Below, one piece after another: positions 12,529 through 63,432 of a stretch of 64,000 bases of DNA (its first letter is position 1; each line of letters starts with the position of its first letter). The notes beneath the pieces are model-generated. The model searched no databases. It saw only the letters and a program-made list of their open reading frames with translations, and had not been told where the DNA came from. The DNA is from an uncultured virus (IMG/VR IMGVR_UViG_3300029985_000038) (lineage: Duplodnaviria; Heunggongvirae; Uroviricota; Caudoviricetes). A program made the position numbers and the translations under genes. The stretch is from the IMG/VR virus record IMGVR_UViG_3300029985_000038; one strand, given 5' to 3'.

Positions 12529-13121
12529 AAATTTTAAGAGCGAACTATACTTAATTGATTATGCTCTAATCTGTACAGATTAGCCCCAATGGTTTAACGT
12601 TCGAAACGGCTCAAGTCACTAGATTCGCTCTTAAAACTCCTTAATTCCTTAACTCCTTAACTCCTTAAATTGTTAAATTGTTAAAGTTAACAGAATAGCG
12701 TTTTTACACGCATAAAGTTTACATATTTGCTCCAGTTGCAGTCAAAATGTTTGATTTCTTTTCAATCCGCTCATTTTCCCTGTCTCCATTAAGGTATTCC
12801 TTAATGGCTCTATCTCTGCCCTGTGAGTATAAATAAAAGTCTTCATCCGAAACAAAATTATGAGATGTTAATCCGGGTTGATTATCAAGTTCCATATTAT
12901 AGTAGATTTGTTTCGGGTCACTACAACTCCTACTGTCTGATTCCATAACATATTTATTATACCATCATATATTCAAGATTATCGGATTTAAGATTATACA
13001 CGACAACATCGTGGCAGAATTTAACATATTTTTCATCTAGAGTGTTTTTAAAATTTGGGATTGTATACATATTAAAATAATCCCATTTAGTTTGCTCTAT
13101 TAATTCTTTTCCTTGTTGTTT

Positions 13122-17119: not shown

Positions 17120-18001
17120 ATGAGTAAGTTTATTTTAGAGACTGATTTAGGAAGAGATCCTGATGATTTTTTCGCTTTATGTTATCTTGTTAGTTCTGGT
17201 CGTGTTCCTGATGCGATAGTTTTATCTCCTGGTGATCCTGATCAAGTTTGTTTATGTCGTATTGTTCTTGATGTACTCAATATTGATATTCCAATTGGTG
17301 TTGCCAAGCTTGGTCGTGATAAATCTTCAGTAGGAAGTATTCATTTAGACATTATCAATAAGTATAAGAAGAATAGGAATTACGATCATGATGGTTTAGG
17401 AAGTCGTGTAATTGCGGATTTGGTAGGATCTGAGGAAGCCACCGCATTAGTAATTGGTCCAGTGACATCTGTTGCTGGTGCATTATCTATTGGTGTAAAG
17501 ATCACATGTGTTCTCATGCAGGGTGGATTTGTTCCTTACAGTTTCCACAATCATGATGTTCCCAGGTTAGATAAATTTGAAGAACAGAATAAAGTTGCTA
17601 CATTCAATTTAGGTGGTGATAAGAATGCTGGATTAGTTTTAGTGAATGCTCTTAATTGTTATCGTTATTTTGTTGGCAAGAACATTTGTCATTGCATTGA
17701 ATACAACAAGAGCATTCATGATTATGTTCTCAGTTTTGAGAGTAAGAATCGTGCTGACGAATTATTCCGTGAAGGCATGGATTTATATTTAGCCAAGCAT
17801 GATTCAAAAAAGTTTCATGATCCATCTGCTGCTTATGCATTATTATATCCTGAAGAAGTTCATTTTGTATTAGGTCGTATGGGTTATGCTCAAGGTAAGT
17901 GGGGAGCGGAAGAAGATGGTGCGGATTTATTAGCTATTAATATTGACATGGATAAATTTTGGCTTTCTATTGCGAATCCATCAGGGTATAATAAGTCATG
18001 A
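17120..18001 (+). CDS. Nucleoside hydrolase (IUNH family)
   Basis: ETDLGRDPDDFFAL, TFN, FHDP motifs. Confidence 0.85.
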   Translation: MSKFILETDLGRDPDDFFALCYLVSSGRVPDAIVLSPGDPDQVCLCRIVLDVLNIDIPIGVAKLGRDKSSVGSIHLDIINKYKKNRNYDHDGLGSRVIADLVGSEEATALVIGPVTSVAGALSIGVKITCVLMQGGFVPYSFHNHDVPRLDKFEEQNKVATFNLGGDKNAGLVLVNALNCYRYFVGKNICHCIEYNKSIHDYVLSFESKNRADELFREGMDLYLAKHDSKKFHDPSAAYALLYPEEVHFVLGRMGYAQGKWGAEEDGADLLAINIDMDKFWLSIANPSGYNKS

Positions 18002-22659: not shown

Positions 22660-22730
22660 GCATTTATTATAGCAGGGTGAATCACTGGGTGTCAAGAGGA
22701 AGAAGAGTATGTGTATAAGAAATATTATCT

Positions 22731-27540: not shown

Positions 27541-28776
27541 ATGTTAAAATCAATTAAATTTAGAATATATCCAGATAGTATCCAGATTGAACAACTAGAA
27601 AATCAATTTGGATGTTCTCGTTTTATTTATAATTGGGCTTTAGATTATTCTAATTGGGAATACAAAAATAATAAAACACGCACTTTTAAAAAGGATTGGA
27701 AAATATTATTACCAAAGCTCAAGGAGTGGCTTCCTTGGTTGAAAACAACAAATTCTCAATCTCTTCAGGAGGAATTAATACATTTAGAAATTGCTTATAA
27801 AAGATTTTTTAAAAAGCAAGGAAATTATCCTAATTTTAAATCAAAATACGACAATCAATCTTTTTCCGTGCCACAACATTTTAAATTAGAAAATGGATTA
27901 TTATCTATTCCTAAAATTAAAAATATTAAAATTATTGTTTCTAAGCAAATAGGAGGAATATTAAGATCAATAACTATATCAAAAACGAAAACCAATAAAT
28001 ATTTTGCTTCTGTTTTATATGATACAGGATTAGATGCTCCTATATTACCTGTTCCAGATAAAGATAAAGCATTAGGAATAGATTTAGGAATTAAACATTT
28101 TATGATCTTAGATACTGGTTATAAAATTAATAATCCTAAATTTTTAGAAAGAACTTCTAAAAAACTTAGATTGTTAAGTAAAAGTTTGTCTAGAAAACAA
28201 AAATCAAGTAAAAATAGATATAAAGCTAAAATGAAATTAGCTTTATATCACGAGATTATAAGTAATAAACGTAATGATTTTATTCACAAAATAACAAATA
28301 GTATAGTTTGCAAAAAACAAGAAATTAATACAATTTGTGTGGAAAATCTGAATGTTAAAAATATGCTTAAAAATCGAAAACTAGCAAAATCAATCTCTTC
28401 AGTTAGCTGGGGAGAAACTTTAAGACAATTAAAATATAAATGTTTATGGTTTGGAATGAATTTATTACAATGTGATGCTTTTGACCCAACTTCTCGTTTA
28501 TGTAATAATTGTAAATATAAAAATAATGATTTGTTATTATCAGATCGCTATTGGACTTGCAATAACTGCAACACCAAACACGATAGAGACATTAATGCTT
28601 CTAAAAACATTAAGGATTTTGCTTTTAAAAAATTATACCCAAGGGATAATGGGAATTTTAAGTCTGTGGAGATGAAAGCTCTGGTTGAAGTCAATAATAT
28701 TGTCAACGAAACTATTATCTATGAAACAGAAAAATATATTGCGAAATATATTATACATTCAAGAATCGGGCATTAA
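27541..28776 (+). mobile_element. tnpB: IS200/IS605-family TnpB RNA-guided nuclease, no TnpA seen
   Basis: KFRIYP...GCSRFIYN; RuvC GIDLG, ENL, DRDINA; CxxC...CxxC. Confidence 0.93.
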
Positions 28777-31996: not shown

Positions 31997-33970
31997 TTAT
32001 AGAACATCTGGTTCTAGTAATTCAACCTTTGGTTCGACATAATTCGGAATATTCTCTTTCATCCATTGTTGCTTGTTGAATGGTTGATTTTGACTTACCG
32101 CCGCATGTTGTGCATTCCATGCATTAGTAATATGATCCCCCATACCTCTACCCTGGAAATAAGGTGCAATATCTTGCTTTTTGACAGCAGACAAAGAGGG
32201 TCGTAAGTAGTTATGAAGCCATGCTTTACCACCTTCTTCGTCAGTGAATTGATTATTCAACCATGCTGCATCAGCAGCTTGAACAGCTTCTCCAATATGT
32301 TTACCTTGTGTACCAAGAGGATGTCCTTGATAATAAGGTTGTACGTGTTGTCCCTTAATTGGGGATTTTGGTAATTCATTATAATAGCCTAATTGTTTTA
32401 CATGTTCACGCATTTTTTCAGCAGCAGGATGAAGCCCTTTCGGTAGTGGTGGTCGTGAACTATGATCTGCTTCAAAAATATGAAATAAGGATTCATAATC
32501 CGCACTTCCAAGTTTTCTTCCAAGCTTTCTCAACCATGCAATTTTATCATTAACATTTGGATAAGTGATATGTGCAAGATGTTGTTCAATAATAGGTTGA
32601 ATTTTATCAATGATAGATTTTTTAACACCCATTTGTTCAAGAACTTTTCTAGCAATAGGTCCACCAGCAGGTTCATGCCCTGGTGAAGTAATTCTTTCCA
32701 CACCATTTTTAATTTCTCTTTTAGTTGTTACTGGTTTTGCAACATCATGAAGTAAAATGCCATACATACGCACTAATTGATCGTCTTCAGACATTGGCGG
32801 TAATCCTTTATATTTTCTTTCATTATTTTCTCTATTAATAATTTCTTTCATGTGCATCATGCCATATTGCACATGATCATGAAGCCAAATTTCTGGATGC
32901 CAATCTTTTTCCTGTTCAACACCACGTTGCGCTCCAAGTTCAGGAAATACAGTGTCAATACCTAAAAGATGCATATTATTAAAGAAATGAGAATAATCCT
33001 TACCCTTTAACATTGCTTTATTAAACTCTTCTACGATTCTTTCTTTCGGTAACATGGAATTATCATTTGGATTTTCTTTGGCATGATTTACATATTCAGC
33101 AATCATATCTCTAGACATTTCAGCAGTAGCAGGATCAATGGTAAAGCTTTTACCATCTGGGGTTTTTAATCTTGTGGAAAATTGTAACAACCTCCACACC
33201 CTTAGCAAGTCTTCACTAAAAGCACTTGTAGTCGCTTTTAAGACTCCATTATTAAGATCCTCAACTCCATTGTAATAATCGTGAATTTGATTATTTAAAG
33301 GATTAAAGGCTAAAGCATTAATAGTTATATCTCTTCTTCCAGCAGCTTCTTTTGGAGACATATTTGGATCGACTTCAACTTGGAAATCGGTGTGTTTAGT
33401 TCCAACTTTATTATCTCTTCTAGGAACAGAAAAATCATATTCAGGAGTAACATCTTCAATAGATTTCATATTATTAAGAATAGATTTTAAAACTGGGTCC
33501 TGAAGTGATGCTTTGTAATCTTTAGAATTTGGATTTAATGATTTAGCTTTTTTAATAAGCTCACGAATATTTTTTTGAAGATTTGGATTGTCAAGATCCA
33601 TTCCTTCATACGGTGTTCCTTGAAATACTTTTTGCATTGTCTTAACAACTTCAGGACTTTTAAAATTAATAGGTTCTGAAAATTTAATAACACCAAAAGC
33701 AGCCCCAACTAAATTAGTGTATCCATATTTATTTAATTCATGTGCTAGTGCTTCAAGATTAACCCCATACACTTCTACGTCAATGTCTTTAGGATCAAGA
33801 CCTAATAAAGCATCTCTTACAGCGCCACCAACAACTAAGCCTTTCTTACCCTTTTGATCAAGGTCTTTTAGGATGTTCATCAAGGAACTTGGCAATTTTA
33901 AATTGGGAAGTTCAGCTTGATATACACCTTCATTATTTGAGGCTATTAGTTTTCGATACCACATATTCAC
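31997..33970 (-). CDS. cca: CCA-adding tRNA nucleotidyltransferase with HD domain
   Basis: VGGAVRDALLG, DIDVE, RRDITINAL, FSEDLLRV, WHPE, LLHDVAK. Confidence 0.9.
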   Translation of the reverse strand: MNMWYRKLIASNNEGVYQAELPNLKLPSSLMNILKDLDQKGKKGLVVGGAVRDALLGLDPKDIDVEVYGVNLEALAHELNKYGYTNLVGAAFGVIKFSEPINFKSPEVVKTMQKVFQGTPYEGMDLDNPNLQKNIRELIKKAKSLNPNSKDYKASLQDPVLKSILNNMKSIEDVTPEYDFSVPRRDNKVGTKHTDFQVEVDPNMSPKEAAGRRDITINALAFNPLNNQIHDYYNGVEDLNNGVLKATTSAFSEDLLRVWRLLQFSTRLKTPDGKSFTIDPATAEMSRDMIAEYVNHAKENPNDNSMLPKERIVEEFNKAMLKGKDYSHFFNNMHLLGIDTVFPELGAQRGVEQEKDWHPEIWLHDHVQYGMMHMKEIINRENNERKYKGLPPMSEDDQLVRMYGILLHDVAKPVTTKREIKNGVERITSPGHEPAGGPIARKVLEQMGVKKSIIDKIQPIIEQHLAHITYPNVNDKIAWLRKLGRKLGSADYESLFHIFEADHSSRPPLPKGLHPAAEKMREHVKQLGYYNELPKSPIKGQHVQPYYQGHPLGTQGKHIGEAVQAADAAWLNNQFTDEEGGKAWLHNYLRPSLSAVKKQDIAPYFQGRGMGDHITNAWNAQHAAVSQNQPFNKQQWMKENIPNYVEPKVELLEPDVL

Positions 33971-34274: not shown

Positions 34275-34472
34275 TTGAATAGAATTTTTGTAATGGAAAC
34301 CATACATGCGTTTGCTGGTAAATGCGATGAAAAAGGTTATTTGGAGGAATCCGATAAATTACAAGAAATTTTAACAGATTTAGCTCATGCAAAAGGTAAG
34401 TCTATTAATGTTGCGGATATTTATAGAGCAAGAAATGAGGTCCTAAATAAAACCCTAGATGCTTTCCGTTAA
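34275..34472 (+). CDS. Paralog of 34034-34273
   Basis: Shared AxKC(D/E)xKGYLxExD. Confidence 0.65.
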   Translation: MNRIFVMETIHAFAGKCDEKGYLEESDKLQEILTDLAHAKGKSINVADIYRARNEVLNKTLDAFR

Positions 34473-35163
34473 TCTATGGTATACTCTGCGTATTATGAAT
34501 ATGATTGGATATAAGTTTCTAGATGAATCTCATTTGAGACGTTCTGCTGAAGAGTTAAAAATGGAAATTGGCGAAAGCCTTCCGCAATTTAAAAAGCGAT
34601 GTAAGGATTTAGGATTTGAATGCTGCGATGCTAAAAATGTTATTAATAGATATAAGGAGTTAACCACTACTTTAATTAAAGCAGACTTAAATGAAAGAAA
34701 ATTTAATTTTTCTGTGTTCTTACAGAATTTATCAGGAGATTTTAATAAGGCAAGTATTATCAGAAATTGTTCCTGTTTTTGTGGACAAGAAGTAATTTTA
34801 TTTGGTTCAAAAGAGTACGACCGTCGTGGCACATGTGGCGCACATTCGTATTTAGACTTTCAACATGTTAAGGAAGTGTCAGAATTAGATGGTTTTTTTG
34901 AGCAATATGATATTGTTATTGCTATTGACAATATTGAAAATTCTATCCCCATTCAAACATATGAATGGGATTATAATGCAAAAACATTATTCGTTTTTGG
35001 AGAAGAGTCGCTTGGAATTTGTCCTGAAATATTAGATAGGTGTCACACAACCTTATATATTCCACAATTTGGTCCGCTTCGCAGTCTTAACGTGAGTAGT
35101 GCTTCTGCTATTGTTTTTCATGAATATACAAGAAAATTTTATAAGGATAATGTTTTTATTTAA
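34459..35163 (+). CDS. TrmH/SpoU-family RNA methyltransferase
   Basis: N.ASIIR, VFGEESLG, IPQFGPLRSLNVSSA. Confidence 0.9.
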   Translation: MLSVNLWYTLRIMNMIGYKFLDESHLRRSAEELKMEIGESLPQFKKRCKDLGFECCDAKNVINRYKELTTTLIKADLNERKFNFSVFLQNLSGDFNKASIIRNCSCFCGQEVILFGSKEYDRRGTCGAHSYLDFQHVKEVSELDGFFEQYDIVIAIDNIENSIPIQTYEWDYNAKTLFVFGEESLGICPEILDRCHTTLYIPQFGPLRSLNVSSASAIVFHEYTRKFYKDNVFI

Positions 35164-38343: not shown

Positions 38344-39522
38344 ATGGGATTGAAAACGAAAAAAATTGATAGTTTTACACAACATTATATTGAGGGATTG
38401 TTATTGAGCGACGGAAGTATGTCTTGCAATAATATATATGACCCAAAAAACGGAGCAAGATATTCTCAAGCTTGCATTTGTTTATCTTGGCTTGAAGAAA
38501 TTGCTAAGGTTTTAAACAATTCAGGTCTTAAAGCTACAATTGTTTCAGAACCTAGAGATGTTGGTAAACCAATATGGAGATTATATACAAATTATTGTGA
38601 AGCTTTAAGACCTATTTACAATAGATGGTATCATGGAAGTAAACAAGTACCTAGAGATATTGAATTTACTCCAACTTTATTAAGAAATTGGTATTTAGGA
38701 GATGGTTCATCTTGCCGTTCGGGAGCTAATTTATATGCAGAGGGATTTACAGTTGATTGTGTGGAATTTTTAACACAAAAATTATCGTTATATTTAGAAA
38801 GTCCTGTAACTCATACTAAAAATAATAATATATTTTTACCAGTATCAACTAGAATAAAATTTATTGATTTAATTTTACAGGCGAATACAGTTCCCGCAAA
38901 CATGGAACATAAATTTATTTTTAATGCCGATATGGTACAGCCCAATAAAGCTGTATTGTTTGGAGTTTCTGGTAAAAAGCGACATGGCAAAGATACTACG
39001 TTTAATATTTTGTCAGAATTACATAGTGATAAAAATTTCTATAAATTAGCATTAGCAGATCCATTAAAAGAAGAAACTAGTAGAATGTTGGCAAATACTT
39101 ATGTTAATTATGATATAGATAGTTTGGCATGGGTTGAAATTTATAAAAAAATTCGTTTAGAAATGGACTTAGATGAAACCAAAGAAGAATATAGAGGTAT
39201 TAATGCTTGGTGGGGAACAGAATTTCGAAGAAATAAATTTAGTCAAACTTATTGGACGGATAGATTATATCATAGAATACAACAATTATTAGGATCTAAA
39301 TGTTATATTGGTTGTACAGATTTAAGATTTCCAAATGAAATGCAATTGATTAAAGATTTAGGTGGGAAAACAATTAGGATTAATAATCCTAGAATCCCCA
39401 TTCTACCTAATGAGCATATAAGTGAAACTGCTTTAGATGATTATGATGGTTTTGATTATGTAATTACTAATGATGGTACATTAGAAGATTTAAAGAATAA
39501 AATAAAGGAATTACAATTATGA
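38344..39522 (+). CDS. LAGLIDADG-like domain fused to deoxynucleoside monophosphate kinase
   Basis: GLLLSDGS and WYLGDGS; then GKKRHGKDT, ADPLK, DLRFPNE, HISE. Confidence 0.85.
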   Translation: MGLKTKKIDSFTQHYIEGLLLSDGSMSCNNIYDPKNGARYSQACICLSWLEEIAKVLNNSGLKATIVSEPRDVGKPIWRLYTNYCEALRPIYNRWYHGSKQVPRDIEFTPTLLRNWYLGDGSSCRSGANLYAEGFTVDCVEFLTQKLSLYLESPVTHTKNNNIFLPVSTRIKFIDLILQANTVPANMEHKFIFNADMVQPNKAVLFGVSGKKRHGKDTTFNILSELHSDKNFYKLALADPLKEETSRMLANTYVNYDIDSLAWVEIYKKIRLEMDLDETKEEYRGINAWWGTEFRRNKFSQTYWTDRLYHRIQQLLGSKCYIGCTDLRFPNEMQLIKDLGGKTIRINNPRIPILPNEHISETALDDYDGFDYVITNDGTLEDLKNKIKELQL

Positions 39523-40109
39523 ACAAAAAACCAACTTGTATTATATGCGATTTAGATGGCGTCGTAGTTGATTCATCTTGTAGGCTTAAAAAATTAATTG
39601 ATTTTGCTGCATGGGATCGGGGTGATTTCAATGCCTATTACAAGAGTTATATCGGATATGGTTTAACTGTTGAAGGTGATGTTGCTCTAGAAGAAGGAAT
39701 TAAAGAACTCAAGTCAATTGTGGATCTTTACAATCCAGAAGAAATATTTTTTTTAACCGCTCGTGGAGATGTTGGAAGACCTTTAACTCTTAAATGGATT
39801 AGAGAACACATTTTTGCTGGTTTTTCTTCATCACATTTGATTATGAATCGTCATTTAGCGCAACTTGACCCTGCATGGGAATTTAAAGAAGGTGATCACT
39901 TTAGTCAAGTTGACTACAAAGAATATGAAATTAAAAAATTCATGGAAAATTATGAAGTCTTATTAGTTCTAGACGATCATCCTTCAATCATTGAAATGTA
40001 TGAAAGTTTAAATATTCCATGTAAATTAATTAAGTTTGAGAACGTTGATTGTGTAACACCAACTTCTAGGAGTGATAAAGCAGCACATGGTAACAAAAGA
40101 AAAAATTGA
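39519..40109 (+). CDS. HAD-family phosphatase (PNKP phosphatase-like)
   Basis: DLDG, TAR, K, DD motifs. Confidence 0.8.
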   Translation: MNKKPTCIICDLDGVVVDSSCRLKKLIDFAAWDRGDFNAYYKSYIGYGLTVEGDVALEEGIKELKSIVDLYNPEEIFFLTARGDVGRPLTLKWIREHIFAGFSSSHLIMNRHLAQLDPAWEFKEGDHFSQVDYKEYEIKKFMENYEVLLVLDDHPSIIEMYESLNIPCKLIKFENVDCVTPTSRSDKAAHGNKRKN

Positions 40110-40436: not shown

Positions 40437-41057
40437 ATGAAATTTTTTACAGGAGATACGCATTTTAAAGAAGAGGGTGTAATTATTAGGTCAAACCGCC
40501 CATTTATTGATATTGAGGAACATGATAAGGTTTTAATTGCAAATTGGAATAGTGTAGTTACACCAAATGACGATGTTTATCATTTGGGGGACTTTGCCTA
40601 TAATCCATTTTATAGAAATTCTAGTAAAGATACCGAAGATAAAGCTTATGAAACTTTTGCTGCGATTTTAGAACAGCTTAATGGGAGAATTCACTGGATC
40701 TATGGAAATCACGATCCAATTAAAAAGAAAAACTTAATGAGTGCTTTGAAGCAATATTTTGTTTGGACTGGAACACAATTAGAGATTAGCATTAGAGATG
40801 AAGATTTAGAAAGGAAAAATCAAAAAATTGTTTTACACCATTGCCCTTGGGAAGATTGGTATAATAAAGAAAGTTCATCATGGCAGCTTCATGCTCACAC
40901 TCATAACAAGTTACCAGATCGTCCTGATCTTTTAAGAATTGATGTTGGTGTGGATTGTCATAATTATACTCCTGTTTCTTATGAACAATTAAAAGAAAAA
41001 ATGAGTTATAAAACTTTTATTCCTCCTAAAAATAGGATGTTAAAAGCTACCAATTAA
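40437..41057 (+). CDS. Calcineurin-like metallophosphoesterase
   Basis: DTH, GD, GNHD, HAH, DVGVD. Confidence 0.9.
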   Translation: MKFFTGDTHFKEEGVIIRSNRPFIDIEEHDKVLIANWNSVVTPNDDVYHLGDFAYNPFYRNSSKDTEDKAYETFAAILEQLNGRIHWIYGNHDPIKKKNLMSALKQYFVWTGTQLEISIRDEDLERKNQKIVLHHCPWEDWYNKESSSWQLHAHTHNKLPDRPDLLRIDVGVDCHNYTPVSYEQLKEKMSYKTFIPPKNRMLKATN

Positions 41058-41591: not shown

Positions 41592-41963
41592 GTGGTTATA
41601 ATGAATGAGATGAATACAAAAACAATTATCGTAATTGTGTTAGGTCTATTTCTTGCTGGTGGTTTATTCTATGGATTAACTTTAGCTGGTTATGGTTTTA
41701 GCACAAAAGTCGTTGCACCACTTGAGGGAAACTTAGCTCAAGCAAATGCGGAAGCACAAAATAAAGCTTTCAAATCTTCTATCCCCTATATTGAATCTCG
41801 TAATACGCGAATTTCTCAATATATTTACCAATACAAAAACTCAAAAGACGAAGTTGCTAAAGCAGGGATTTTATCAGAAATCAATGATATAGCAAATGAA
41901 GTTTTAGATAAATCTAAACTATCGTCTAGTAATCAATCGTTTTTACAGGAGCATGGATTATGA
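41592..41963 (+). CDS. Membrane-anchored protein
   Basis: N-terminal hydrophobic helix. Confidence 0.7.
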   Translation: MVIMNEMNTKTIIVIVLGLFLAGGLFYGLTLAGYGFSTKVVAPLEGNLAQANAEAQNKAFKSSIPYIESRNTRISQYIYQYKNSKDEVAKAGILSEINDIANEVLDKSKLSSSNQSFLQEHGL

Positions 41964-42508
41964 AAACAACATTATGGTTATTACCACTCATTATTGTCGT
42001 AATTGGCTGTGCGCAGAATCCAACTGTTAACGAAAAAGAATCTGTTGCACAAGATGTTATTCAACAAAATCTTAATTCAAAAGTTGGTGGAGCGCCAAAC
42101 ATTACAAATGGTACAGATAAATTAACTGTAAAGAAAATTTATGAAAAGCGTGATCAAGCTAATTTAATCACGTATGTTTATTCTGAAGATATGGTGGGTA
42201 TTCTTCATTTTAGGTTTAGAGCCAAAGGTTACCCTACTTGTTTAGCAACACAATGGTCCGCTCCTACAAAATGGACTTATGGTGGTTCCACTCGTGGTTA
42301 CTATCAAGAACCCCAGGCTGAGCCTAATGGTATTTATCCTCCAGCTACATCAGAAGGTGATTATATTCTTGCTATTGATGAAAACAACCCAAGTGTTGAT
42401 CATTTAGTGTTTTTTGAACCACGATGGGTTGTTTATGATTATCCTGTATCATATTTAAATCAAACTCCATTAATTGTTGATGGAAAGACGCTAATTTCAG
42501 GAAAATAA
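41960..42508 (+). CDS. Lipoprotein
   Basis: Signal peptide with VIGC lipobox. Confidence 0.75.
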   Translation: MKTTLWLLPLIIVVIGCAQNPTVNEKESVAQDVIQQNLNSKVGGAPNITNGTDKLTVKKIYEKRDQANLITYVYSEDMVGILHFRFRAKGYPTCLATQWSAPTKWTYGGSTRGYYQEPQAEPNGIYPPATSEGDYILAIDENNPSVDHLVFFEPRWVVYDYPVSYLNQTPLIVDGKTLISGK

Positions 42509-42523
42509 GGGTATAATAAGAAC

Positions 42524-42586
42524 ATGAAAGTAAGAGTAATGGTTATGGTAGTGGAAATGGAGGAACGTGAAGTAGAGACTTCATGA
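42524..42586 (+). CDS. Leader peptide MKVRVMVMVVEMEEREVETS (putative attenuator of tRNA cluster 1)
   Basis: TATAAT 42512-42517, ATG 6 nt later; 15 of 20 codons are Val/Met/Glu. Confidence 0.8.
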   Translation: MKVRVMVMVVEMEEREVETS

Positions 42587-42612
42587 CCATCTAGCTTTTA
42601 GAAATGCTCTTA

Positions 42613-42653
42613 AAGAACCCAGATGGTAAGAACTATCTGGGTTCTTGTTGTTT
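42613..42653 (+). terminator. Terminator with competing antiterminator
   Basis: AAGAACCCAGATGGT / ACTATCTGGGTTCTT; ACCATCT (42586-42592) is complementary to AGATGGT (42621-42627). Confidence 0.8.
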
Positions 42654-42656
42654 ATT

Positions 42657-42905
42657 ATGAAAAAAGATAAAAGTAAAATAAAGGAATGGTTGAGTTTCGC
42701 AAGAGAACAAAAGAAAAGTCATCTTTTAATTATTGAACAAACGTATAAAGGAATTAAAATTCCAGTATACATCAATAGAAAAGAAGATTTAGAAAAAACC
42801 ATTAATGATTACTCTAGTCTTAGTAAGGTAAATATTTTGGAAATATATAATACAAATTTAGATCCAAATATACAATTAAATAGCGTTAAGAATTGGGAAA
42901 AATAA
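42657..42905 (+). CDS. Hypothetical protein at head of tRNA cluster 1
   Basis: ORF track, ATG after terminator. Confidence 0.6.
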   Translation: MKKDKSKIKEWLSFAREQKKSHLLIIEQTYKGIKIPVYINRKEDLEKTINDYSSLSKVNILEIYNTNLDPNIQLNSVKNWEK

Positions 42906-42932
42906 AAAACTTTTGAAAATTAAATAATATTA

Positions 42933-43006
42933 CCTCGGTTGGCGCAATTTGGTAGCGCAACTCATTTACATTGAGAAGGTTGTAAGTTCAAATCTTACAC
43001 TGAGGA
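42933..43006 (+). tRNA. tRNA-Val(TAC)
   Basis: CCTCGGT/ACTGAGG acceptor; loop TTTACAT; GTAAG-TTCAAAT-CTTAC. Confidence 0.85.
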
Positions 43007-43016
43007 CGAGAAATAT

Positions 43017-43093
43017 GGCGGCATAGATTAGTGGCTTAAATCGCTTCGTTCTCACCGAAGAAATCACGGATTCGAATTCCGTTGTCGCTACCA
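43017..43093 (+). tRNA. tRNA-Glu(CTC), encoded CCA
   Basis: GGCGGCA/TGTCGCT; CTTCG-TTCTCAC-CGAAG. Confidence 0.9.
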
Positions 43094-43113
43094 CGAGAAA
43101 TACGAGATAAAAT

Positions 43114-43202
43114 GGCGGTGTCTTCCAAGGGTAGGAAACCGGACTTTCTAAGGCAAAGGCTTTAGAAATCCGTAAATCGGAGTTCAATTCTCCGCATCGC
43201 TA
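43114..43202 (+). tRNA. tRNA with 25-nt anticodon loop (18-nt insertion); Glu(TTC) if removed 3' of the anticodon
   Basis: Normal acceptor, D and T arms; loop 43144-43168 holds a 10-bp hairpin. Confidence 0.7.
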
Positions 43203-43231
43203 CGAGAGGTATAGGAGGTATAGGAGGAAAC

Positions 43232-43429
43232 ATGAAACGTACAATTAAGTTATTTTACAACGATAAAGTAGTTGGCACTATTTATGCAGACAAAGATGAA
43301 CCTTGGAACTCTATTCAAATGAGAGGATTCCAAAAGTTACAAATGGATGCAATTAGTCCCAATAGTAGATTATTCGCCGTCAAGCTTCAACGAGATAAAT
43401 TGAAGTGCGTGGAACAGGCAGTCGCGTAA
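43232..43429 (+). CDS. Hypothetical protein within tRNA cluster
   Basis: AGGAGG SD. Confidence 0.65.
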   Translation: MKRTIKLFYNDKVVGTIYADKDEPWNSIQMRGFQKLQMDAISPNSRLFAVKLQRDKLKCVEQAVA

Positions 43430-43439
43430 TTGCCAAAAT

Positions 43440-43517
43440 ACAACAACATAGTTTAATTAAAACACCTGGTCGTCTTGGACTGGGAGAGTGCAGATTTGGA
43501 TTCTGGCTGTTGTTGTA
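43440..43517 (+). pseudogene. Degenerate tRNA-like element
   Basis: ACAACAACA/TGTTGTTGT closing stem, D-, anticodon- and T-like arms, CGAGA trailer. Confidence 0.5.
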
Positions 43518-43701
43518 CGAGAAAAACATGAATATAAAATCAGATAATCGTAAAATAAAAAGAAAATCATTAAAAGAAACAAGATGTATGGATTGTAAAA
43601 AAACCTTGGGTTTATGAAGGTTTAGATGATAGAAATTAAATAGAGTTAACTTTCGCAGAAGAAGACGCTTTCAATTAGTCCTAATGCGAAACGAGATGTA
43701 C

Positions 43702-43770
43702 GGCTAGTGCCTGGGGTAAGGGCTGGTTTTTCATAAGAATCGGAAATGGGTTCGAATCCCATACTAGCTA
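43702..43770 (+). tRNA. Compact tRNA with CAT anticodon (Met or Ile2)
   Basis: GGCTAGT/ACTAGCT; loop TTCATAA; ATGGG-TTCGAAT-CCCAT. Confidence 0.75.
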
Positions 43771-43983
43771 CGAGAATTTATAGTTTCCAGTAACAGCAAG
43801 CCATTATCAAACTCTCTGTGACAGTTTGGGCATAGATATATTAAATTATTTATATCGTTTATTTCACTTAATTTGATGTCATTAGAAAAATCCTTTACTG
43901 CTTTAATATGACAAGTGTCAACAAATTTATTATAACTACAATTTTTACAAGGCTTACCACGATCTAGATATTAATCCGTAATA

Positions 43984-44808
43984 TCAAACCCAAACTTTAT
44001 GGATATTATTTGGGTTTAAATACATTCCCGTATTCATAAAGGCAGTAATAACAAATCTTAATTTGTGATCCACTATTTCGTTTGTTAGATAAAAATTTCC
44101 TAAACCAAATGAATACATTTTCCCTGAATTATTATGGAATAGTAATGGCATATTTTTTTCTACCATTGTTGTACTAACCATAATTTTAGTTTTATGGAAT
44201 GTTCCGTAAATTTGAGTTTTAAGAATATCCACTTGATCTTCATTAACAATAAAATCTTTTCTAACATCTGATCTTTTATAATGCATGAAATCTTTGCCAG
44301 TTTGTCCATTTGGAAATTTAAAATTTCCATAATCTTTTGGATGTAAGACTAAATATCCTTCCATACTTTTTGAAATTTCTTCTAATTCTTCCCAACCAGT
44401 TAAGGGTGTTATTAACTTATAGTGATTTACTATAGATAGTTTTATTTTAGTTTGTAATTGTCTATCTAACGAATCCCTAATTTTTATTATTAATCTTTCG
44501 TTTAGGTATTCTCTATGTTTAGAGTTGTTTTGTTTGAAAATTTCATCCAAATAGACATGACATTCTAATGGAATTTTTGCTATGAAAATTTCACTACCTT
44601 CAACTAATGGGGCATTATCAATTAATGGCATTATGTATTTATCGTTTTCTGATTTTTTAACTCTTAGAATTTCTTCGTTAGTGTGAGGTTCGTTGTTAAA
44701 TAATTTATAAACCCAGTTGGTGTCGATAATTTCCTGAAAAAATGGATCAGTTTTTTCGTGGGCGATAGGCTTAAAAGCCCATAGAATTTCTTCTGTTATA
44801 TTAATCAT
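43984..44808 (-). CDS. Hypothetical protein, possible divergent major-capsid-protein paralog
   Basis: LHPKDY...ILKTQIYGTF....IMVS resembles HK97-fold A-domain pattern. Confidence 0.4.
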   Translation of the reverse strand: MINITEEILWAFKPIAHEKTDPFFQEIIDTNWVYKLFNNEPHTNEEILRVKKSENDKYIMPLIDNAPLVEGSEIFIAKIPLECHVYLDEIFKQNNSKHREYLNERLIIKIRDSLDRQLQTKIKLSIVNHYKLITPLTGWEELEEISKSMEGYLVLHPKDYGNFKFPNGQTGKDFMHYKRSDVRKDFIVNEDQVDILKTQIYGTFHKTKIMVSTTMVEKNMPLLFHNNSGKMYSFGLGNFYLTNEIVDHKLRFVITAFMNTGMYLNPNNIHKVWV

Positions 44809-44911
44809 ATATTTTCCTTGGTTCATCACCAAATGAAACTTCATCAGTTTCAAGGTTAGTATAATTAAAATCATACTTGATAATCCAAAATTATGGTATA
44901 CTTCCTTCATT

Positions 44912-50709: not shown

Positions 50710-51492
50710 ATGTCTTTATTTCGCGTAACTTTCACTGGAGTTGATGGAAAAACTGATTTAAGAAGATTAAATCAGTTGTCAACTGATTATCCCTTTATTG
50801 AATGGGGTGTATTGTTTTCTAGATCAAAGCAAGGTTTAGAAAATCGTTATCCAAATCTTAATGTAATTGCTGATTTTGTAAATCTAGAAAAGCCAATTAA
50901 ATCCGCACATATCTGTGGCAATTGGACTGGAGAAAACCGTAATTATCAATGTCCTCGTGATATAGCTAAAGCACTTTATGATTTATTTGGTGGATTCAAT
51001 AGGTATCAATTTAATATTAGTAATGCCAAAGATGCCCACAGTTATGAAATCTTTCATCAAAACGTGGTTAATTGTGATAATCTACCTTTTTATCAAGGTG
51101 GATTTGTCAACTATCCTAAATTCATTCTTCAAAGTAAGAGTTTTAATTTAACTCAACAAACAATAGAATTATTGAGCTATATACGTGATTACGATGGTAA
51201 TGTACATAATTCAAACCACAACGATCCATTAATCCATGTGCTTTTGGATAATTCAGGGGGCATAGGTAGGGTTTTAGACATCGTAGCTCCACCTGAAGAC
51301 TTTAGATATACCCCAGGTTATGCAGGAGGCATTAATCCTGAGAATGTTGCAGAAGTGATTGGTAAAATTGAAGCCTTAAATCTTAAACAGGATTATTGGA
51401 TTGATATGGAAACAGGCGTAAGAATAGATGATTGGTTTGATTTAGACAAATGTGAAGCTGTAGCCAAGATTGCTAAACAATTTATACACTAG
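50710..51492 (+). CDS. TrpF-like TIM-barrel protein
   Basis: D.SGG.G, GYAGGINPENV, WIDMETGVR. Confidence 0.7.
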   Translation: MSLFRVTFTGVDGKTDLRRLNQLSTDYPFIEWGVLFSRSKQGLENRYPNLNVIADFVNLEKPIKSAHICGNWTGENRNYQCPRDIAKALYDLFGGFNRYQFNISNAKDAHSYEIFHQNVVNCDNLPFYQGGFVNYPKFILQSKSFNLTQQTIELLSYIRDYDGNVHNSNHNDPLIHVLLDNSGGIGRVLDIVAPPEDFRYTPGYAGGINPENVAEVIGKIEALNLKQDYWIDMETGVRIDDWFDLDKCEAVAKIAKQFIH

Positions 51493-51668: not shown

Positions 51669-51736
51669 AAAAGTCTAGAAAAAGTAGTAAAACCCAAAGA
51701 AACCTGGGTATAATAAGAACAGTTAGGAAAACTATC

Positions 51737-51808
51737 ATGAAAACACAAGTCGCCACAATTATTATTGCAGCCGCAGCAGCGATTATCGCTGATGCCGAAC
51801 TTGGGTAA
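51737..51808 (+). CDS. Leader peptide MKTQVATIIIAAAAAIIADAELG (putative attenuator of tRNA cluster 2)
   Basis: TATAAT 51709-51714, AGGA SD; 8 Ala, 5 Ile, 1 Val codons. Confidence 0.82.
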   Translation: MKTQVATIIIAAAAAIIADAELG

Positions 51809-51835
51809 CTAAAGATAGTAACTAAACTAATCAAC

Positions 51836-51870
51836 AAAAGACTCAAGTTCAAGAAACTTGAGTCTTTTTT
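51836..51870 (+). terminator. Terminator with competing antiterminator
   Basis: AAAAGACTCAAGTT / AACTTGAGTCTTTT plus U tract; GAACTTGGGT (51797-51806) pairs with ACTCAAGTTC (51841-51850). Confidence 0.88.
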
Positions 51871-51894
51871 GTGTTTTGTAGTTACGAGATGAAT

Positions 51895-51971
51895 GGGGAG
51901 TGGGACTGCTTTGGGGTGGTCGTTTCTATGGCATAGAAAACACTAGACGGGTTCGATGCCCGTACTCTCCA
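51895..51971 (+). tRNA. tRNA-Ala(GGC)
   Basis: G3:U70; TTTCT-ATGGCAT-AGAAA. Confidence 0.85.
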
Positions 51972-51982
51972 CGAGAATAAAT

Positions 51983-52054
51983 GGGGGATTAGCTCAGCGG
52001 GAGAGCGGGACTTTTGCAAAGTTCAGGTCAGGGATTCGAATTCCCTATCCTCCA
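51983..52054 (+). tRNA. tRNA-Ala(TGC)
   Basis: G3:U70; loop TTTGCAA; canonical cloverleaf. Confidence 0.92.
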
Positions 52055-52065
52055 CCGAGATAAAT

Positions 52066-52137
52066 CGCCGTATGTCGAAATGGGAAAGAAAATGCCTGAT
52101 TAGCGTTCATGACTGGGTTCGATTCCTAGTGCGGCGA
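52066..52137 (+). tRNA. tRNA-Ile(GAT)
   Basis: CGCCGTA/TGCGGCG; AATGC-CTGATTA-GCGTT. Confidence 0.8.
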
Positions 52138-52165
52138 CGAGAAAATTGATTTCAAATATCGTGCT

Positions 52166-52348
52166 ATGAAAAATATAAATCAATATAAAAAAGAAAATGA
52201 GCGTTTAATTTCATTACTTAAAAAAGTCCAATGGAATGCAGAACCTAATTGTTGTGGTGCATGTGTTTATTGTTATTGTTATGAATGGGAAGAACATAGC
52301 GAAGATTGTGAATTAAATAATTTATTACATGAAAATATAGGAAAATAA
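52166..52348 (+). CDS. Small Cys-rich protein
   Basis: ORF track. Confidence 0.6.
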   Translation: MKNINQYKKENERLISLLKKVQWNAEPNCCGACVYCYCYEWEEHSEDCELNNLLHENIGK

Positions 52349-52349
52349 T

Positions 52350-52685
52350 ATGGAAAACTTAATGCAAAGATTTTTGGAAAAAACAGACGAAACCGGAAGA
52401 TTTATGGTATACTCTAAAAAGACTGGTATCAAGTATTTTGTTGAGCCTATTATGGGTGGAGAAAGAAGATCTTGGGGCGATCTTATCCCTGGTAAATCTG
52501 GTGCTGGAATTGAAGGTGATTATGGTTCTAAATATTTAGGAGCAGTTCACAAAGAAGACTCTTTAATAACAGAAGAAAATGGTTTTAAGAATATTGAATT
52601 GTTAGGTAGAGGGGTTAGTCCTCATGGAACAATTCATGAGGTAGATGACGAAAGATATGCTCAAGGTTTCAGACCAAGAGCATAA
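52350..52685 (+). CDS. Conserved phage hypothetical protein
   Basis: ORF track. Confidence 0.75.
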   Translation: MENLMQRFLEKTDETGRFMVYSKKTGIKYFVEPIMGGERRSWGDLIPGKSGAGIEGDYGSKYLGAVHKEDSLITEENGFKNIELLGRGVSPHGTIHEVDDERYAQGFRPRA

Positions 52686-52709
52686 TGATCAAATCCCAAC
52701 GAGATAAAT

Positions 52710-52778
52710 GGGGGATGTACGGGGTGTACTTCTGACACTTGCAATGTCGGCAAAAGGATTCGAGTTCCTTATTCTCCA
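52710..52778 (+). tRNA. Compact tRNA-Ala(TGC) with 6-bp anticodon stem
   Basis: G3:U70; CTGACA-CTTGCAA-TGTCGG. Confidence 0.8.
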
Positions 52779-52791
52779 CCGAGATAAATAT

Positions 52792-52881
52792 CTCCTGCTA
52801 CCTCAACGGCTAGAGGACTCGACTGAAAAATCCAGAGATTTTTCTAATTGAGCTATCCAAGTTCGATTCTTGGGCGGGAGA
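52792..52881 (+). tRNA. tRNA with 25-nt anticodon loop (18-nt insertion); Phe(GAA) or Arg(TCT) after removal
   Basis: CTCCTGC/GCGGGAG; loop 52823-52847 holds an 8-bp hairpin. Confidence 0.7.
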
Positions 52882-52896
52882 CGAGAAAAATTGTAC

Positions 52897-52972
52897 TAGA
52901 ATATAGTTTTGCGGAAAAACACAGTTTTGAGATTAATACAACTGGGACGTAAGTTCGACTCTTACTATTCAT
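52897..52972 (+). pseudogene. Degenerate tRNA-like element
   Basis: GTAAG-TTCGACT-CTTAC T arm; CAGTT/AACTG stem with 13-nt loop. Confidence 0.45.
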
Positions 52973-53056
52973 AGACATAGGTTGGAATGTTGGTTGGCTA
53001 CCGTGTCTTAATCCGCGATACAGTTCGATTCTGTATAATAATTTCTAACCGAATCT

Positions 53057-53128
53057 GGGCGCATAGATCAATGGCAGATCGCAAACTTGACAGGTTTGAG
53101 GTTATGGGTTCGAACCCCATTGTGCCCA
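53057..53128 (+). tRNA. tRNA-Val(GAC)
   Basis: GGGCGCA/TGTGCCC; CAAAC-TTGACAG-GTTTG. Confidence 0.92.
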
Positions 53129-53157
53129 CGAGTAAAATGTGGTATACTGATTATCTT

Positions 53158-62208: not shown

Positions 62209-63432
62209 ATGTTAAAATTTCCAATTTTATACCACAAAGGTAAGGGTGGGGAAATTCGTGTTTGGTCTGTTTGGTCTGATGGCGATACTGTTTTTACAGA
62301 ATATGGCGTCGAAAACGGTATTATGCAAATTTCCTCAAAGAAAGTTATTGCTAAAAATGTAGGTAAGAAATCTGCTACAACAGTAGAAGAACAAGCCGAT
62401 AAAGAAGCTAAAAGTCAATGGGAGTTCAAAAAGAAACGAAAGTATTCTGAATCAGTTGATGCAGCAGAAGAAGTTTTGCAACTTCCTATGTTAGCTAAAG
62501 ATTACACTCCTGATAAGATTGTTTTCCCAGCTTTAATGCAACCAAAATTAGATGGTGTACGTTGTGAAGCGTTTTGGGACGGCGATAGAATTAAACTTAT
62601 TTCTAGAGCAGGTTTAGAGTGGACTGTACCAAATCATATTGCTGAACAAGTTGCGAATGTGTTACCTAAAGGTTCACAATTCGACGGAGAGCTATATGTT
62701 CATGGTAAGTCATGTCAAACTATCACTTCGTATGTAAAGCGTCTACAACCGCAAACAGAACTAGTAGAATATCATATCTATGATATGCCAGTGGTTGATG
62801 GTGATGATACATTAACTAATGAAGAAAGACATGCTGCTTTAACTAATATTTTAAAGGATTGTCAAGAAACTCACTTAATTCTAGTGGAAACAATTGAAGT
62901 TCATAATGAAAAAGAAATTAAAGATACAGAAGCATATTGGGTATCTTTAGGTTATGAAGGTGGAATTGTGAGAAATAAGAAAGGTATTTATCGTTTTGGT
63001 TATCGTTCTTGGGATTTACAAAAAGTAAAAACCTTTAAAGATGGTGAGTTTGAAGTGATTGGCTGTAAAGAGGGTGTTGGAAAAATGGTGGGTTGTGCTA
63101 TTTTTGAATGTCGTAATGATATTACAGACGCAACTTTTGACGTTACTTGTTCATGCCCAACAATAGAAAAACAAGAACAATATAAAAATAGACATAAATA
63201 TATTGGAAAATTATTGACGGTTAAGTATTTTGATAGGACTGATGATGGCATTCTTCGCTTCCCGGTGGGTAAACTATTTAGAGCAGATGAAGATTTATCT
63301 AAAAATCTTATACCTATTAAAGTTTCACTTAATGAGGTATTAGTTAATGCTATAATCTCCAAAGCAACAGTAAAGCCAAAGGATAAAACCAAGAAGAAAT
63401 CTTTGTTTGACACTATTTTAGAAGAAGATTAA
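62209..63432 (+). CDS. ATP-dependent DNA ligase
   Basis: PMLA, KLDGVR, DGELY, EG..VR, K.K, RFP. Confidence 0.93.
   Translation: MLKFPILYHKGKGGEIRVWSVWSDGDTVFTEYGVENGIMQISSKKVIAKNVGKKSATTVEEQADKEAKSQWEFKKKRKYSESVDAAEEVLQLPMLAKDYTPDKIVFPALMQPKLDGVRCEAFWDGDRIKLISRAGLEWTVPNHIAEQVANVLPKGSQFDGELYVHGKSCQTITSYVKRLQPQTELVEYHIYDMPVVDGDDTLTNEERHAALTNILKDCQETHLILVETIEVHNEKEIKDTEAYWVSLGYEGGIVRNKKGIYRFGYRSWDLQKVKTFKDGEFEVIGCKEGVGKMVGCAIFECRNDITDATFDVTCSCPTIEKQEQYKNRHKYIGKLLTVKYFDRTDDGILRFPVGKLFRADEDLSKNLIPIKVSLNEVLVNAIISKATVKPKDKTKKKSLFDTILEED

Follow-up and report, generated by a model that had tools for sequence, protein, structure and literature searches.

Why phages carry transfer RNA (tRNA) genes and how such genes are controlled are open questions, and both are raised by a group of tRNA genes in IMGVR_UViG_3300029985_000038, a record of an uncultured virus of the Caudoviricetes in the IMG/VR database. 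The DNA analyzed here, hereafter the window, is a stretch of 64,000 nucleotides (nt) of this virus. An earlier note, made from its letters alone, had drawn attention to positions 42509 to 43775, where a very short open reading frame (ORF) rich in Val, Met and Glu codons is followed by a terminator and then by tRNA genes, and had taken this arrangement for a leader-peptide attenuator. We analyzed this unit (unit 1) and a sister unit (unit 2) by computational means. Three things described below can be read from the DNA itself, namely the layout of the unit, the match between its codons and its tRNAs, and the alternative pairings; the start signal, the codon match, the terminator, the alternative pairing and the sister unit support the earlier reading. 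We put the probability that unit 1 is a ribosome-mediated leader-peptide transcription attenuator, which gates a phage tRNA unit and feeds back on tRNA supply, at roughly 0.6.

The leader ORF and the tRNA genes behind it

The 20-codon ORF (leader 1, Table 1) is present where it had been placed and has the codon content claimed for it, namely GTA four times, GTG, GTT, ATG four times (start included), GAA three times and GAG twice. Behind it, the tRNA-Val(TAC), tRNA-Glu(CTC) and CAT-anticodon tRNA genes of the earlier note were each called by both ARAGORN and Rfam. The earlier note had also suggested computing the probability of the codon match against codon usage. As background we took the 46 ORFs of at least 150 amino acids (aa) in the window, which together comprise 13,003 codons. 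Against it, Val, Met and Glu account for 14 of the 19 post-start codons of leader 1, where the expected share is 0.142 (p = 7.7e-9). When only the codons read directly by the three confidently called tRNAs (GTA, GTG, GAG and ATG) were counted, the share was 10 of 19, with 0.052 expected (p = 9.4e-9). Leader 1 is therefore enriched in codons tied to the genes that it would regulate. As a cross-control, leader 1 was scored for Ala, Ile and Val, the set of the sister unit, and the result was not significant (6 of 19, expected 0.193, p = 0.14).

The match was also compared with the 708 ATG-started small ORFs of 15-40 codons in the window. A Val, Met and Glu share of 14/19 is reached by only two of them, leader 1 and its own nested ATG form, and the Ala, Ile and Val share of the second leader (leader 2) is reached by leader 2 alone. 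The sole strain variant seen in leader 1, 42577 G>A on one low-depth contig, is synonymous (GAG to GAA).

Promoter string and gene starts

Leader 1 is directly preceded by the 15-nt string GGGTATAATAAGAAC, which contains the -10 hexamer TATAAT at 42512-42517; a -35 hexamer is not apparent. Given the position of this hexamer, the predicted transcript start is the A of the ATG at 42524. This ATG, 6 nt past TATAAT, gives leader 1 a credible start signal behind the putative promoter. The string had been described as shared by the two units, and it does occur in the window at 42509 and 51706 only, where the chance expectation is 0.28 copies; two or more copies were obtained in 3 of 100 shuffles. 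The identity of the two copies over 15 nt is mostly that of a shared promoter consensus, GGTATAATAAG. With at most one mismatch, GGGTATAATA occurs 18 times versus 6.0 expected, a number that none of 100 shuffles reached.

The promoter class of this phage consists of GGTATAAT followed by an ATG 4-6 nt on. There are 20 G[GC]TATAAT motifs in the window, ten of which have an ATG 4-6 nt downstream, and seven of these ten open ORFs of 96-260 aa. The copies with a more distant ATG (40408, 51707 and 60886) have an AGGA-like site before the ATG. Gene starts 4-6 nt past the GGTATAAT motif were observed, for example, at 17985, 18611, 50697, 53352 and 61351 on the + strand and at 22673 and 25340 on the - strand. 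This pattern fits a -10 element whose transcripts would often begin at AUG, and it implies that leaderless mRNAs are probably widespread in this phage. Because the same spacing of motif and ATG opens those genes, the 20-codon ORF begins exactly like the real genes of the phage. Between the terminator and the tRNA genes, no copy of the phage promoter motif was found on the + strand; a weak sigma-70-like match (9/12) lies at 42733-42760.

Terminator and alternative pairings

A strong intrinsic terminator stands between leader 1 and the genes that it would regulate, and that of unit 2, with 14 pairs, is strong as well. The 15-base-pair (bp) terminator of the earlier note was recovered at the same place by our terminator scan. 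Its 15 pairs, 6 of which are G-C, close a 4-nt loop and are followed by the tail GTTGTTTATT. The hairpin begins 27 nt past the leader stop codon, and the scan returned no further terminator-like site on the + strand before 43775. The 5' arm (42613-42627) includes AGATGGT at 42621-42627. The sequence ACCATCT at 42586-42592, the first base of which is the A of the TGA stop codon, is its exact Watson-Crick complement, just as had been pointed out. A Watson-Crick helix of 7 bp was matched in 155 of 5000 shuffles anywhere and in 50 of 5000 near the stop codon.

To place these pairings in the course of transcription, masked folds were computed in silico for the RNA as it stands before the 3' arm is made (42524-42631 in unit 1), with a ribosome mask of 30 nt. 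The antiterminator of unit 1 was in the minimum-energy fold with the A site at codons 2-13 and 16, i.e. at 13 of 20 positions, a range that takes in the majority of the Val, Met and Glu codons, and it was absent at codons 14, 15 and 17-21. With no ribosome on the RNA the antiterminator was absent as well, and 42549-42562 (segment 1) paired with 42579-42593 (segment 2) instead. In these models the alternative pairings of unit 1 are those of the four-segment logic of classical attenuators. An antiterminator that excludes the terminator and depends on the position of the ribosome is thus found in silico, with modest statistical weight.

A sister unit of the same design

A unit of the same design lies at 51706-53129. 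Its leader, MKTQVATIIIAAAAAIIADAELG, and that of unit 1 had been described as sharing no obvious sequence while each matched its own cluster, and this was borne out. The two units have no common sequence beyond the promoter string. Ala, Ile and Val make up 14 of the 22 codons of leader 2 (expected 0.193, p = 6.5e-6), and its cognate codons likewise make up 14 of 22 (expected 0.151, p = 3.0e-7). The cross-control of leader 2 against Val, Met and Glu was, like that of leader 1, not significant (2 of 22, expected 0.142, p = 0.84).

In unit 2, GAACUUGGGU, situated at the end of the leader ORF with its stop codon, pairs with the 5' arm of the terminator in a helix of 9-10 bp. With G-U pairs allowed, 14 of 5000 shuffles were as good as the 9-bp helix, and 2 of 5000 near the stop codon. 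In the masked folds the antiterminator forms with the A site at codons 2-16 and is lost at codons 18-24. The first tRNA-like gene of unit 2 starts 26 nt past the hairpin, so that the tRNAs of this unit would hardly be made without read-through. Three Ala-type tRNAs of unit 2 carry G3:U70.

Table 1. Features of the two tRNA units and RNA-care genes in the window
Feature	Position	Strand	Basis or remark
Promoter string GGGTATAATAAGAAC	42509-42523	+	Putative promoter
Leaderless 20-codon leader ORF (leader 1) MKVRVMVMVVEMEEREVETS	42524-42586	+	TGA stop
Segment 1, within the regulatory codons	42549-42562	+	Pairs with segment 2 in the absence of a ribosome; minimum-energy folds
Segment 2, 5' strand of the antiterminator	42579-42593	+	Holds ACCATCT, 42586-42592
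Intrinsic terminator hairpin, segments 3 and 4	42613-42646	+	Terminator scan
T-rich tail GTTGTTTATT	42647-42656	+	Interrupted tract
82-aa ORF, between terminator and tRNAs	42657-42905	+	Read from ATG 42657; no PHROG or Pfam match
tRNA-Val(TAC)	42933-43007	+	ARAGORN; Rfam 61.5 bits
tRNA-Glu(CTC)	43017-43093	+	ARAGORN; Rfam 61.0 bits
tRNA-shaped element, 14-bp rod replacing the anticodon arm	43114-43202	+	Cloverleaf fold -34.3 kcal/mol, z = -4.4
65-aa ORF inside the tRNA unit	43232-43429	+	
CAT-anticodon tRNA	43702-43771	+	ARAGORN call Met; Rfam 34.5 bits
Sister unit (unit 2), same design	51706-53129	+	Promoter string 51706-51720
Leader 2 MKTQVATIIIAAAAAIIADAELG, Ala/Ile-rich	51737-51808	+	Start at 51737
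Antiterminator strand of unit 2 GAACTTGGGT	51797-51806	+	
Terminator of unit 2, 14 pairs	51836-51868	+	Terminator scan
tRNA-Ala(GGC)-like gene	51895-51971	+	Followed by Ala(TGC), Ile(GAT), Ala(TGC), two odd tRNA-like elements and Val(GAC)
RNA-care set: tRNA nucleotidyltransferase, SpoU-type methylase, polynucleotide kinase, phosphoesterase, ATP-dependent ligase	31997-33970 (-), 34459-35163 (+), 39519-40109 (+), 40437-41057 (+), 62209-63432 (+)		

Blind comparison with other tRNA clusters

A blind test was applied to 116 tRNA clusters, comprising the two of the window and 114 from 154 unrelated IMG/VR loci. A terminator-like hairpin was sought within 450 nt upstream of each cluster, then a small ORF ending at most 75 nt before the hairpin, and the codons of this ORF were scored by a binomial test against the amino acids of the cluster. 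The hairpin was present in 17 of the 116 clusters, and 15 of these 17 also had the small ORF. The two units of the window scored 1.1e-6 and 4.9e-6. Because the other 13 clusters scored no better than 0.03, the procedure does not readily yield such a signal.

Proposed mechanism

The attenuator would work as follows. Transcription from the phage promoter would give an mRNA beginning at the AUG of the 20-codon leader. When the Val, Met and Glu codons are read fast, the ribosome would arrive at the stop codon and cover ACCAUCU in segment 2, the 15-bp hairpin would form, and most transcripts would end at about 42650. When the matching charged tRNAs are scarce, decoding would be slow and the ribosome would stall within codons 2-13, where it would cover segment 1 and free segment 2 to pair with AGAUGGU in the 5' arm of the terminator. 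RNA polymerase would then go on to transcribe the 82-aa ORF and, behind it, the tRNA genes for Val, Glu and the CAT anticodon. In this way, the supply of precisely those tRNAs for which the unit has genes would be under negative feedback, and the sister unit would exert an equivalent control for Ala, Ile and Val. The steps that we infer from the sequence are the use of the promoter, translation of the leaderless mRNA, stalling of the ribosome and regulated read-through.

Taken together, the two units might represent an undescribed phage tRNA homeostat, in which a tiny leader, made up of the codons of the cluster behind it, gates each tRNA cluster and permits its transcription only on shortage; we regard the chances for and against this wider proposal as evenly balanced. 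If it is true, the shortage could follow the decay of host tRNAs after shut-off or their cutting by anticodon-nuclease defences, and the existence of two sequence-unrelated units for different amino-acid sets would point to a modular, evolvable design. Recent papers show that host tRNAs lost through the action of defence systems can be replaced by those of the phage (PMC11464382, PMC11555353).

Points against the attenuator reading

A number of observations weigh against the attenuator reading and are collected here. As to the codon match, a skewed composition alone is not rare, for a share of at least 0.74 for the top three amino acids is found in 6 of the 708 small ORFs. Five codons of leader 1 (Lys, Arg twice, Thr and Ser) have no matching called tRNA, and tRNA-Glu(CTC) reads only GAG, that is 2 of the 5 Glu codons of the leader. 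The CAT-anticodon tRNA may be an elongator tRNA-Met or a lysidine-Ile (Ile2) tRNA, both being possible. The "possible Glu(TTC)" of the earlier note, at 43114-43202, remained unconfirmed as a tRNA, being called neither by default ARAGORN nor by Rfam at E <= 10. The argument that the choice of Val codons tracks the cluster is weak: GTA makes up four of the six Val codons of leader 1 (p = 0.056 for at least four), and for GAG in at least two of the five Glu codons p is 0.15. For GCC in at least three of the eight Ala codons of leader 2, p is 0.038. The tracking of synonymous codons is only suggestive.

As to termination, the T tract of terminator 1 is interrupted, and the antiterminator of unit 1 has only 7 bp, in the loop-proximal half of the 15-nt arm, with AAGAACCC left free. 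With G-U pairs included, this helix is equalled or bettered in 1122 of 5000 shuffles (280 near the stop codon). Because shuffles match it so often, with G-U pairs or with the 155 of 5000 given above, the helix is modest on its own. In equilibrium folding the terminator always wins, and the minimum-energy fold of the full leader (42524-42656, -43.8 kcal/mol) has the terminator intact. The only contig from an RNA-library run spans 42312-42509, outside the leader and the terminator.

As to relatives, the 13 other candidate clusters of the blind test contained no second example. No relatives were found in which conservation or covariation could be compared. The DNA itself had no match in the phage collection, either at 41900-44000 in the near mode or at 42400-44000 in the distant mode. 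The proteins at 41960-42508 and 43984-44910 gave no match in IMG/VR, the phage collection or the metagenome contigs, and a 935-aa protein gave none in the phage collection. In a search of 5.8 billion proteins, the 182-aa neighbour at 41960-42508 matched itself alone; it is recorded on 6 contigs of up to 521,591 bp. A PRAI-like protein (50710-51492) has 223 homologues, 33 of which were aligned and led to 80 metagenome loci at 29-37% identity; tRNAs occur in only 4 of these 80 loci, and a leader with a terminator in none of those 4. The protein P0003, which is 52% identical to the PRAI-like protein, was not found in IMG/VR or in the genome contigs. The 21-mer consisting of the promoter string and ATGAAA had no match in IMG/VR. 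The 15-mer matched 34 IMG/VR stretches, of which 2 have tRNAs and none has the unit layout, and these outside matches look like chance. In LR756508.1, a distant 484-kb phage whose helicase is 31% identical to that of the window and in which Rfam finds 28 tRNAs, six stretches with 27 ARAGORN tRNAs contained no leader unit; the two terminator-like hairpins in them were not upstream of a tRNA.

Alternative explanations

Three other explanations were considered. The one that survives best, which we nevertheless think improbable, keeps the leader as a sensor of decoding speed and gives it another output than regulated termination, i.e. processing or stability of the tRNA precursor, translation of the 82-aa ORF, Rho, or mRNA cleavage. 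It would agree with the weakness of the unit 1 antiterminator, with the repeated spacer CGAGAWAAAT in the tRNA units, which suggests heavy processing, and with the position of the ATG of the 82-aa ORF (42657), which adjoins the hairpin tail 11 nt after the hairpin. Unit 2, however, has no ORF after its hairpin, a hairpin with a T tail fits an intrinsic terminator, and the competing strand lies exactly at the stop codon in both units, which is the geometry of termination control.

A little less probable is that the hairpin is an ordinary constitutive or leaky terminator closing the upstream genes, and that the 20-codon ORF, as noise or an unrelated small gene, matches the tRNAs by coincidence. 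The gene at 41960-42508 does end only about 105 nt before the hairpin; however, a promoter motif lies between its stop codon and the hairpin, and the transcript from this motif would therefore run only about 130 nt to the terminator. Coincidence is suggested by the 6 of 708 small ORFs that are as skewed by chance, and by the 7-bp complement, which appears in 3% of shuffles, or 22% with G-U pairs. Against it, the match is seen twice, each time with the unit's own tRNA set (p about 1e-8 and about 1e-6) and with cross-controls that are not significant, and none of the 13 other phage clusters reached p < 0.03.

Finally, a translation-independent attenuator, in which the purine-rich RNA of the leader is itself bound by a protein or a tRNA, as with TRAP or a T-box, and the terminator is switched by this binding, is very improbable: the leader is indeed rich in G, A and U, almost free of C for about 40 nt and provided with several GAG and UAG triplets, and the regulated genes are tRNAs, which are likewise T-box ligands, but in Rfam at E <= 10 no match to a T-box or another cis-regulatory family came near its cut-off, translation is indicated by the strict three-base periodicity of the leader, by its ATG, which coincides with the predicted start of the transcript, and by its in-frame stop beside the competing strand, and the sister leader is of quite different composition.

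The tRNA units and their surroundings

The frame of the 82-aa ORF behind terminator 1 is also listed from TTG 42645 (86 aa). Two elements, at 43114-43202 and 52792-52881, fold as cloverleafs with a long rod at the position of the anticodon arm (z-scores -4.4 and -3.2, respectively). Permissive ARAGORN labels the former Leu(AAG); the latter has an ARAGORN call with a 4-base anticodon and no Rfam call. In both, 25 nt (7 + 18) lie between the anticodon-stem strands, the first five being CUUUC in one and CUGAA in the other. Each element may therefore have an insert of 18 nt beside its anticodon, which would be UUC (Glu) or GAA (Phe), and the elements could be tRNAs with short introns or decoys with a masked anticodon. 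No tRNA identity could be assigned to the element at 43440-43517.

In the + strand regions 43006-43775 and 51884-53135, the spacer CGAGA(A/T)AAAT follows nearly every tRNA or tRNA-like element, directly past the discriminator base, and precedes the next one. In the two tRNA units, a CCA is encoded only by tRNA-Glu(CTC). ACGAGA occurs 26 times in the window versus 13.5 expected, with 13 of the 26 inside the two tRNA units. The spacer is probably a processing signal. A search pattern of the T-loop motif plus the CGAGA trailer matched 120 loci, none of which has a systematic CGAGA spacer.

The window, whose G+C content is 30-39%, comes from the genome of a very large uncultured phage. Among its proteins are a helicase, a tRNA nucleotidyltransferase, a polynucleotide kinase, a phosphoesterase, a ligase and tail-like proteins. 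The best phage match of the helicase has 32% identity, and all 101 of the 101 matching records are below 60%. Among public DNA runs, near-identical DNA was found in peat metagenome runs, and pieces of it in two lake-water runs. A gene set for tRNA care and RNA repair lies near the tRNA units (Table 1). At 27541-28776 (+) and 38344-39522 (+) we noted an IS605/TnpB-like transposase gene and also a dNMP kinase, the N-terminal half of which matches a LAGLIDADG homing endonuclease. A TTAAGGAG-like unit is repeated four times in tandem at 12640-12675 on the - strand, after a 75-aa gene (12719-12946).

The standard genetic code fits the window, since ORFs of at least 100 aa under code 11 cover 77% of it and all three stop codons are used; on these grounds, reassignment of a stop codon in the window was considered unlikely. 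In LR756508.1, the stretch L240 holds at 1335-1406 a tRNA with a CTA anticodon, of the amber suppressor type, which ARAGORN names "Pyl". This hints at stop-codon reassignment in that phage, and the window shows no such sign.

Comparison with known systems

Leader-peptide attenuators are known from the amino-acid operons of enterobacteria, where trpL, hisL, pheL, leuL, thrL and ilvL are the leaders. Unit 1 resembles them in its promoter-proximal short ORF rich in regulatory codons, in its intrinsic terminator, for whose 5' arm a segment beside the stop codon competes, in the pairing of segments 1 and 2 in the absence of a ribosome, and in its leader of about 130 nt. Like thrL and ilvL, the phage leader would sense several amino acids together. 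It differs from the enterobacterial attenuators in being viral, in its leaderless mRNA, in regulatory codons that are interleaved and not gathered in one run, and in its antiterminator of 7 bp. The targets differ too: downstream of leader 1 there are tRNAs and small ORFs, and not genes for amino-acid biosynthesis or a synthetase. Since the regulated genes are tRNAs, the molecule that is sensed would be the product itself.

Within the translation apparatus, the nearest case is the attenuator of the Escherichia coli pheST operon for phenylalanyl-tRNA synthetase, with its Phe-rich leader pheM. There, as proposed here, leader-peptide attenuation acts on a gene of the translation apparatus and responds to the decoding of cognate codons; the pheST target is a synthetase and the system cellular, whereas the targets in the phage are tRNA genes and the system is viral. 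Unit 1 shares with the T-box riboswitches a terminator/antiterminator switch that would report the state of specific tRNAs. A T-box, unlike the phage unit, binds uncharged tRNA directly through a conserved fold, while the sensor of the phage would be a translated ORF, and an Rfam scan of 42500-43900 at E <= 10 found no T-box match.

In full-text literature searches we found no published description of leader-peptide attenuation of tRNA genes; one candidate paper mentions a tRNA operon, but in another context. Amino-acid and synthetase genes are the established targets of leader-peptide attenuation; the putative targets here are tRNA genes. If the attenuator reading is true, the sensor is the decoding speed of codons read by the unit's own tRNAs, which would close a direct feedback loop on tRNA supply. 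The amino-acid content of such a leader should then forecast the tRNA set behind it, and the leaders would offer compact devices of natural origin for reporting whether specific tRNAs are available.

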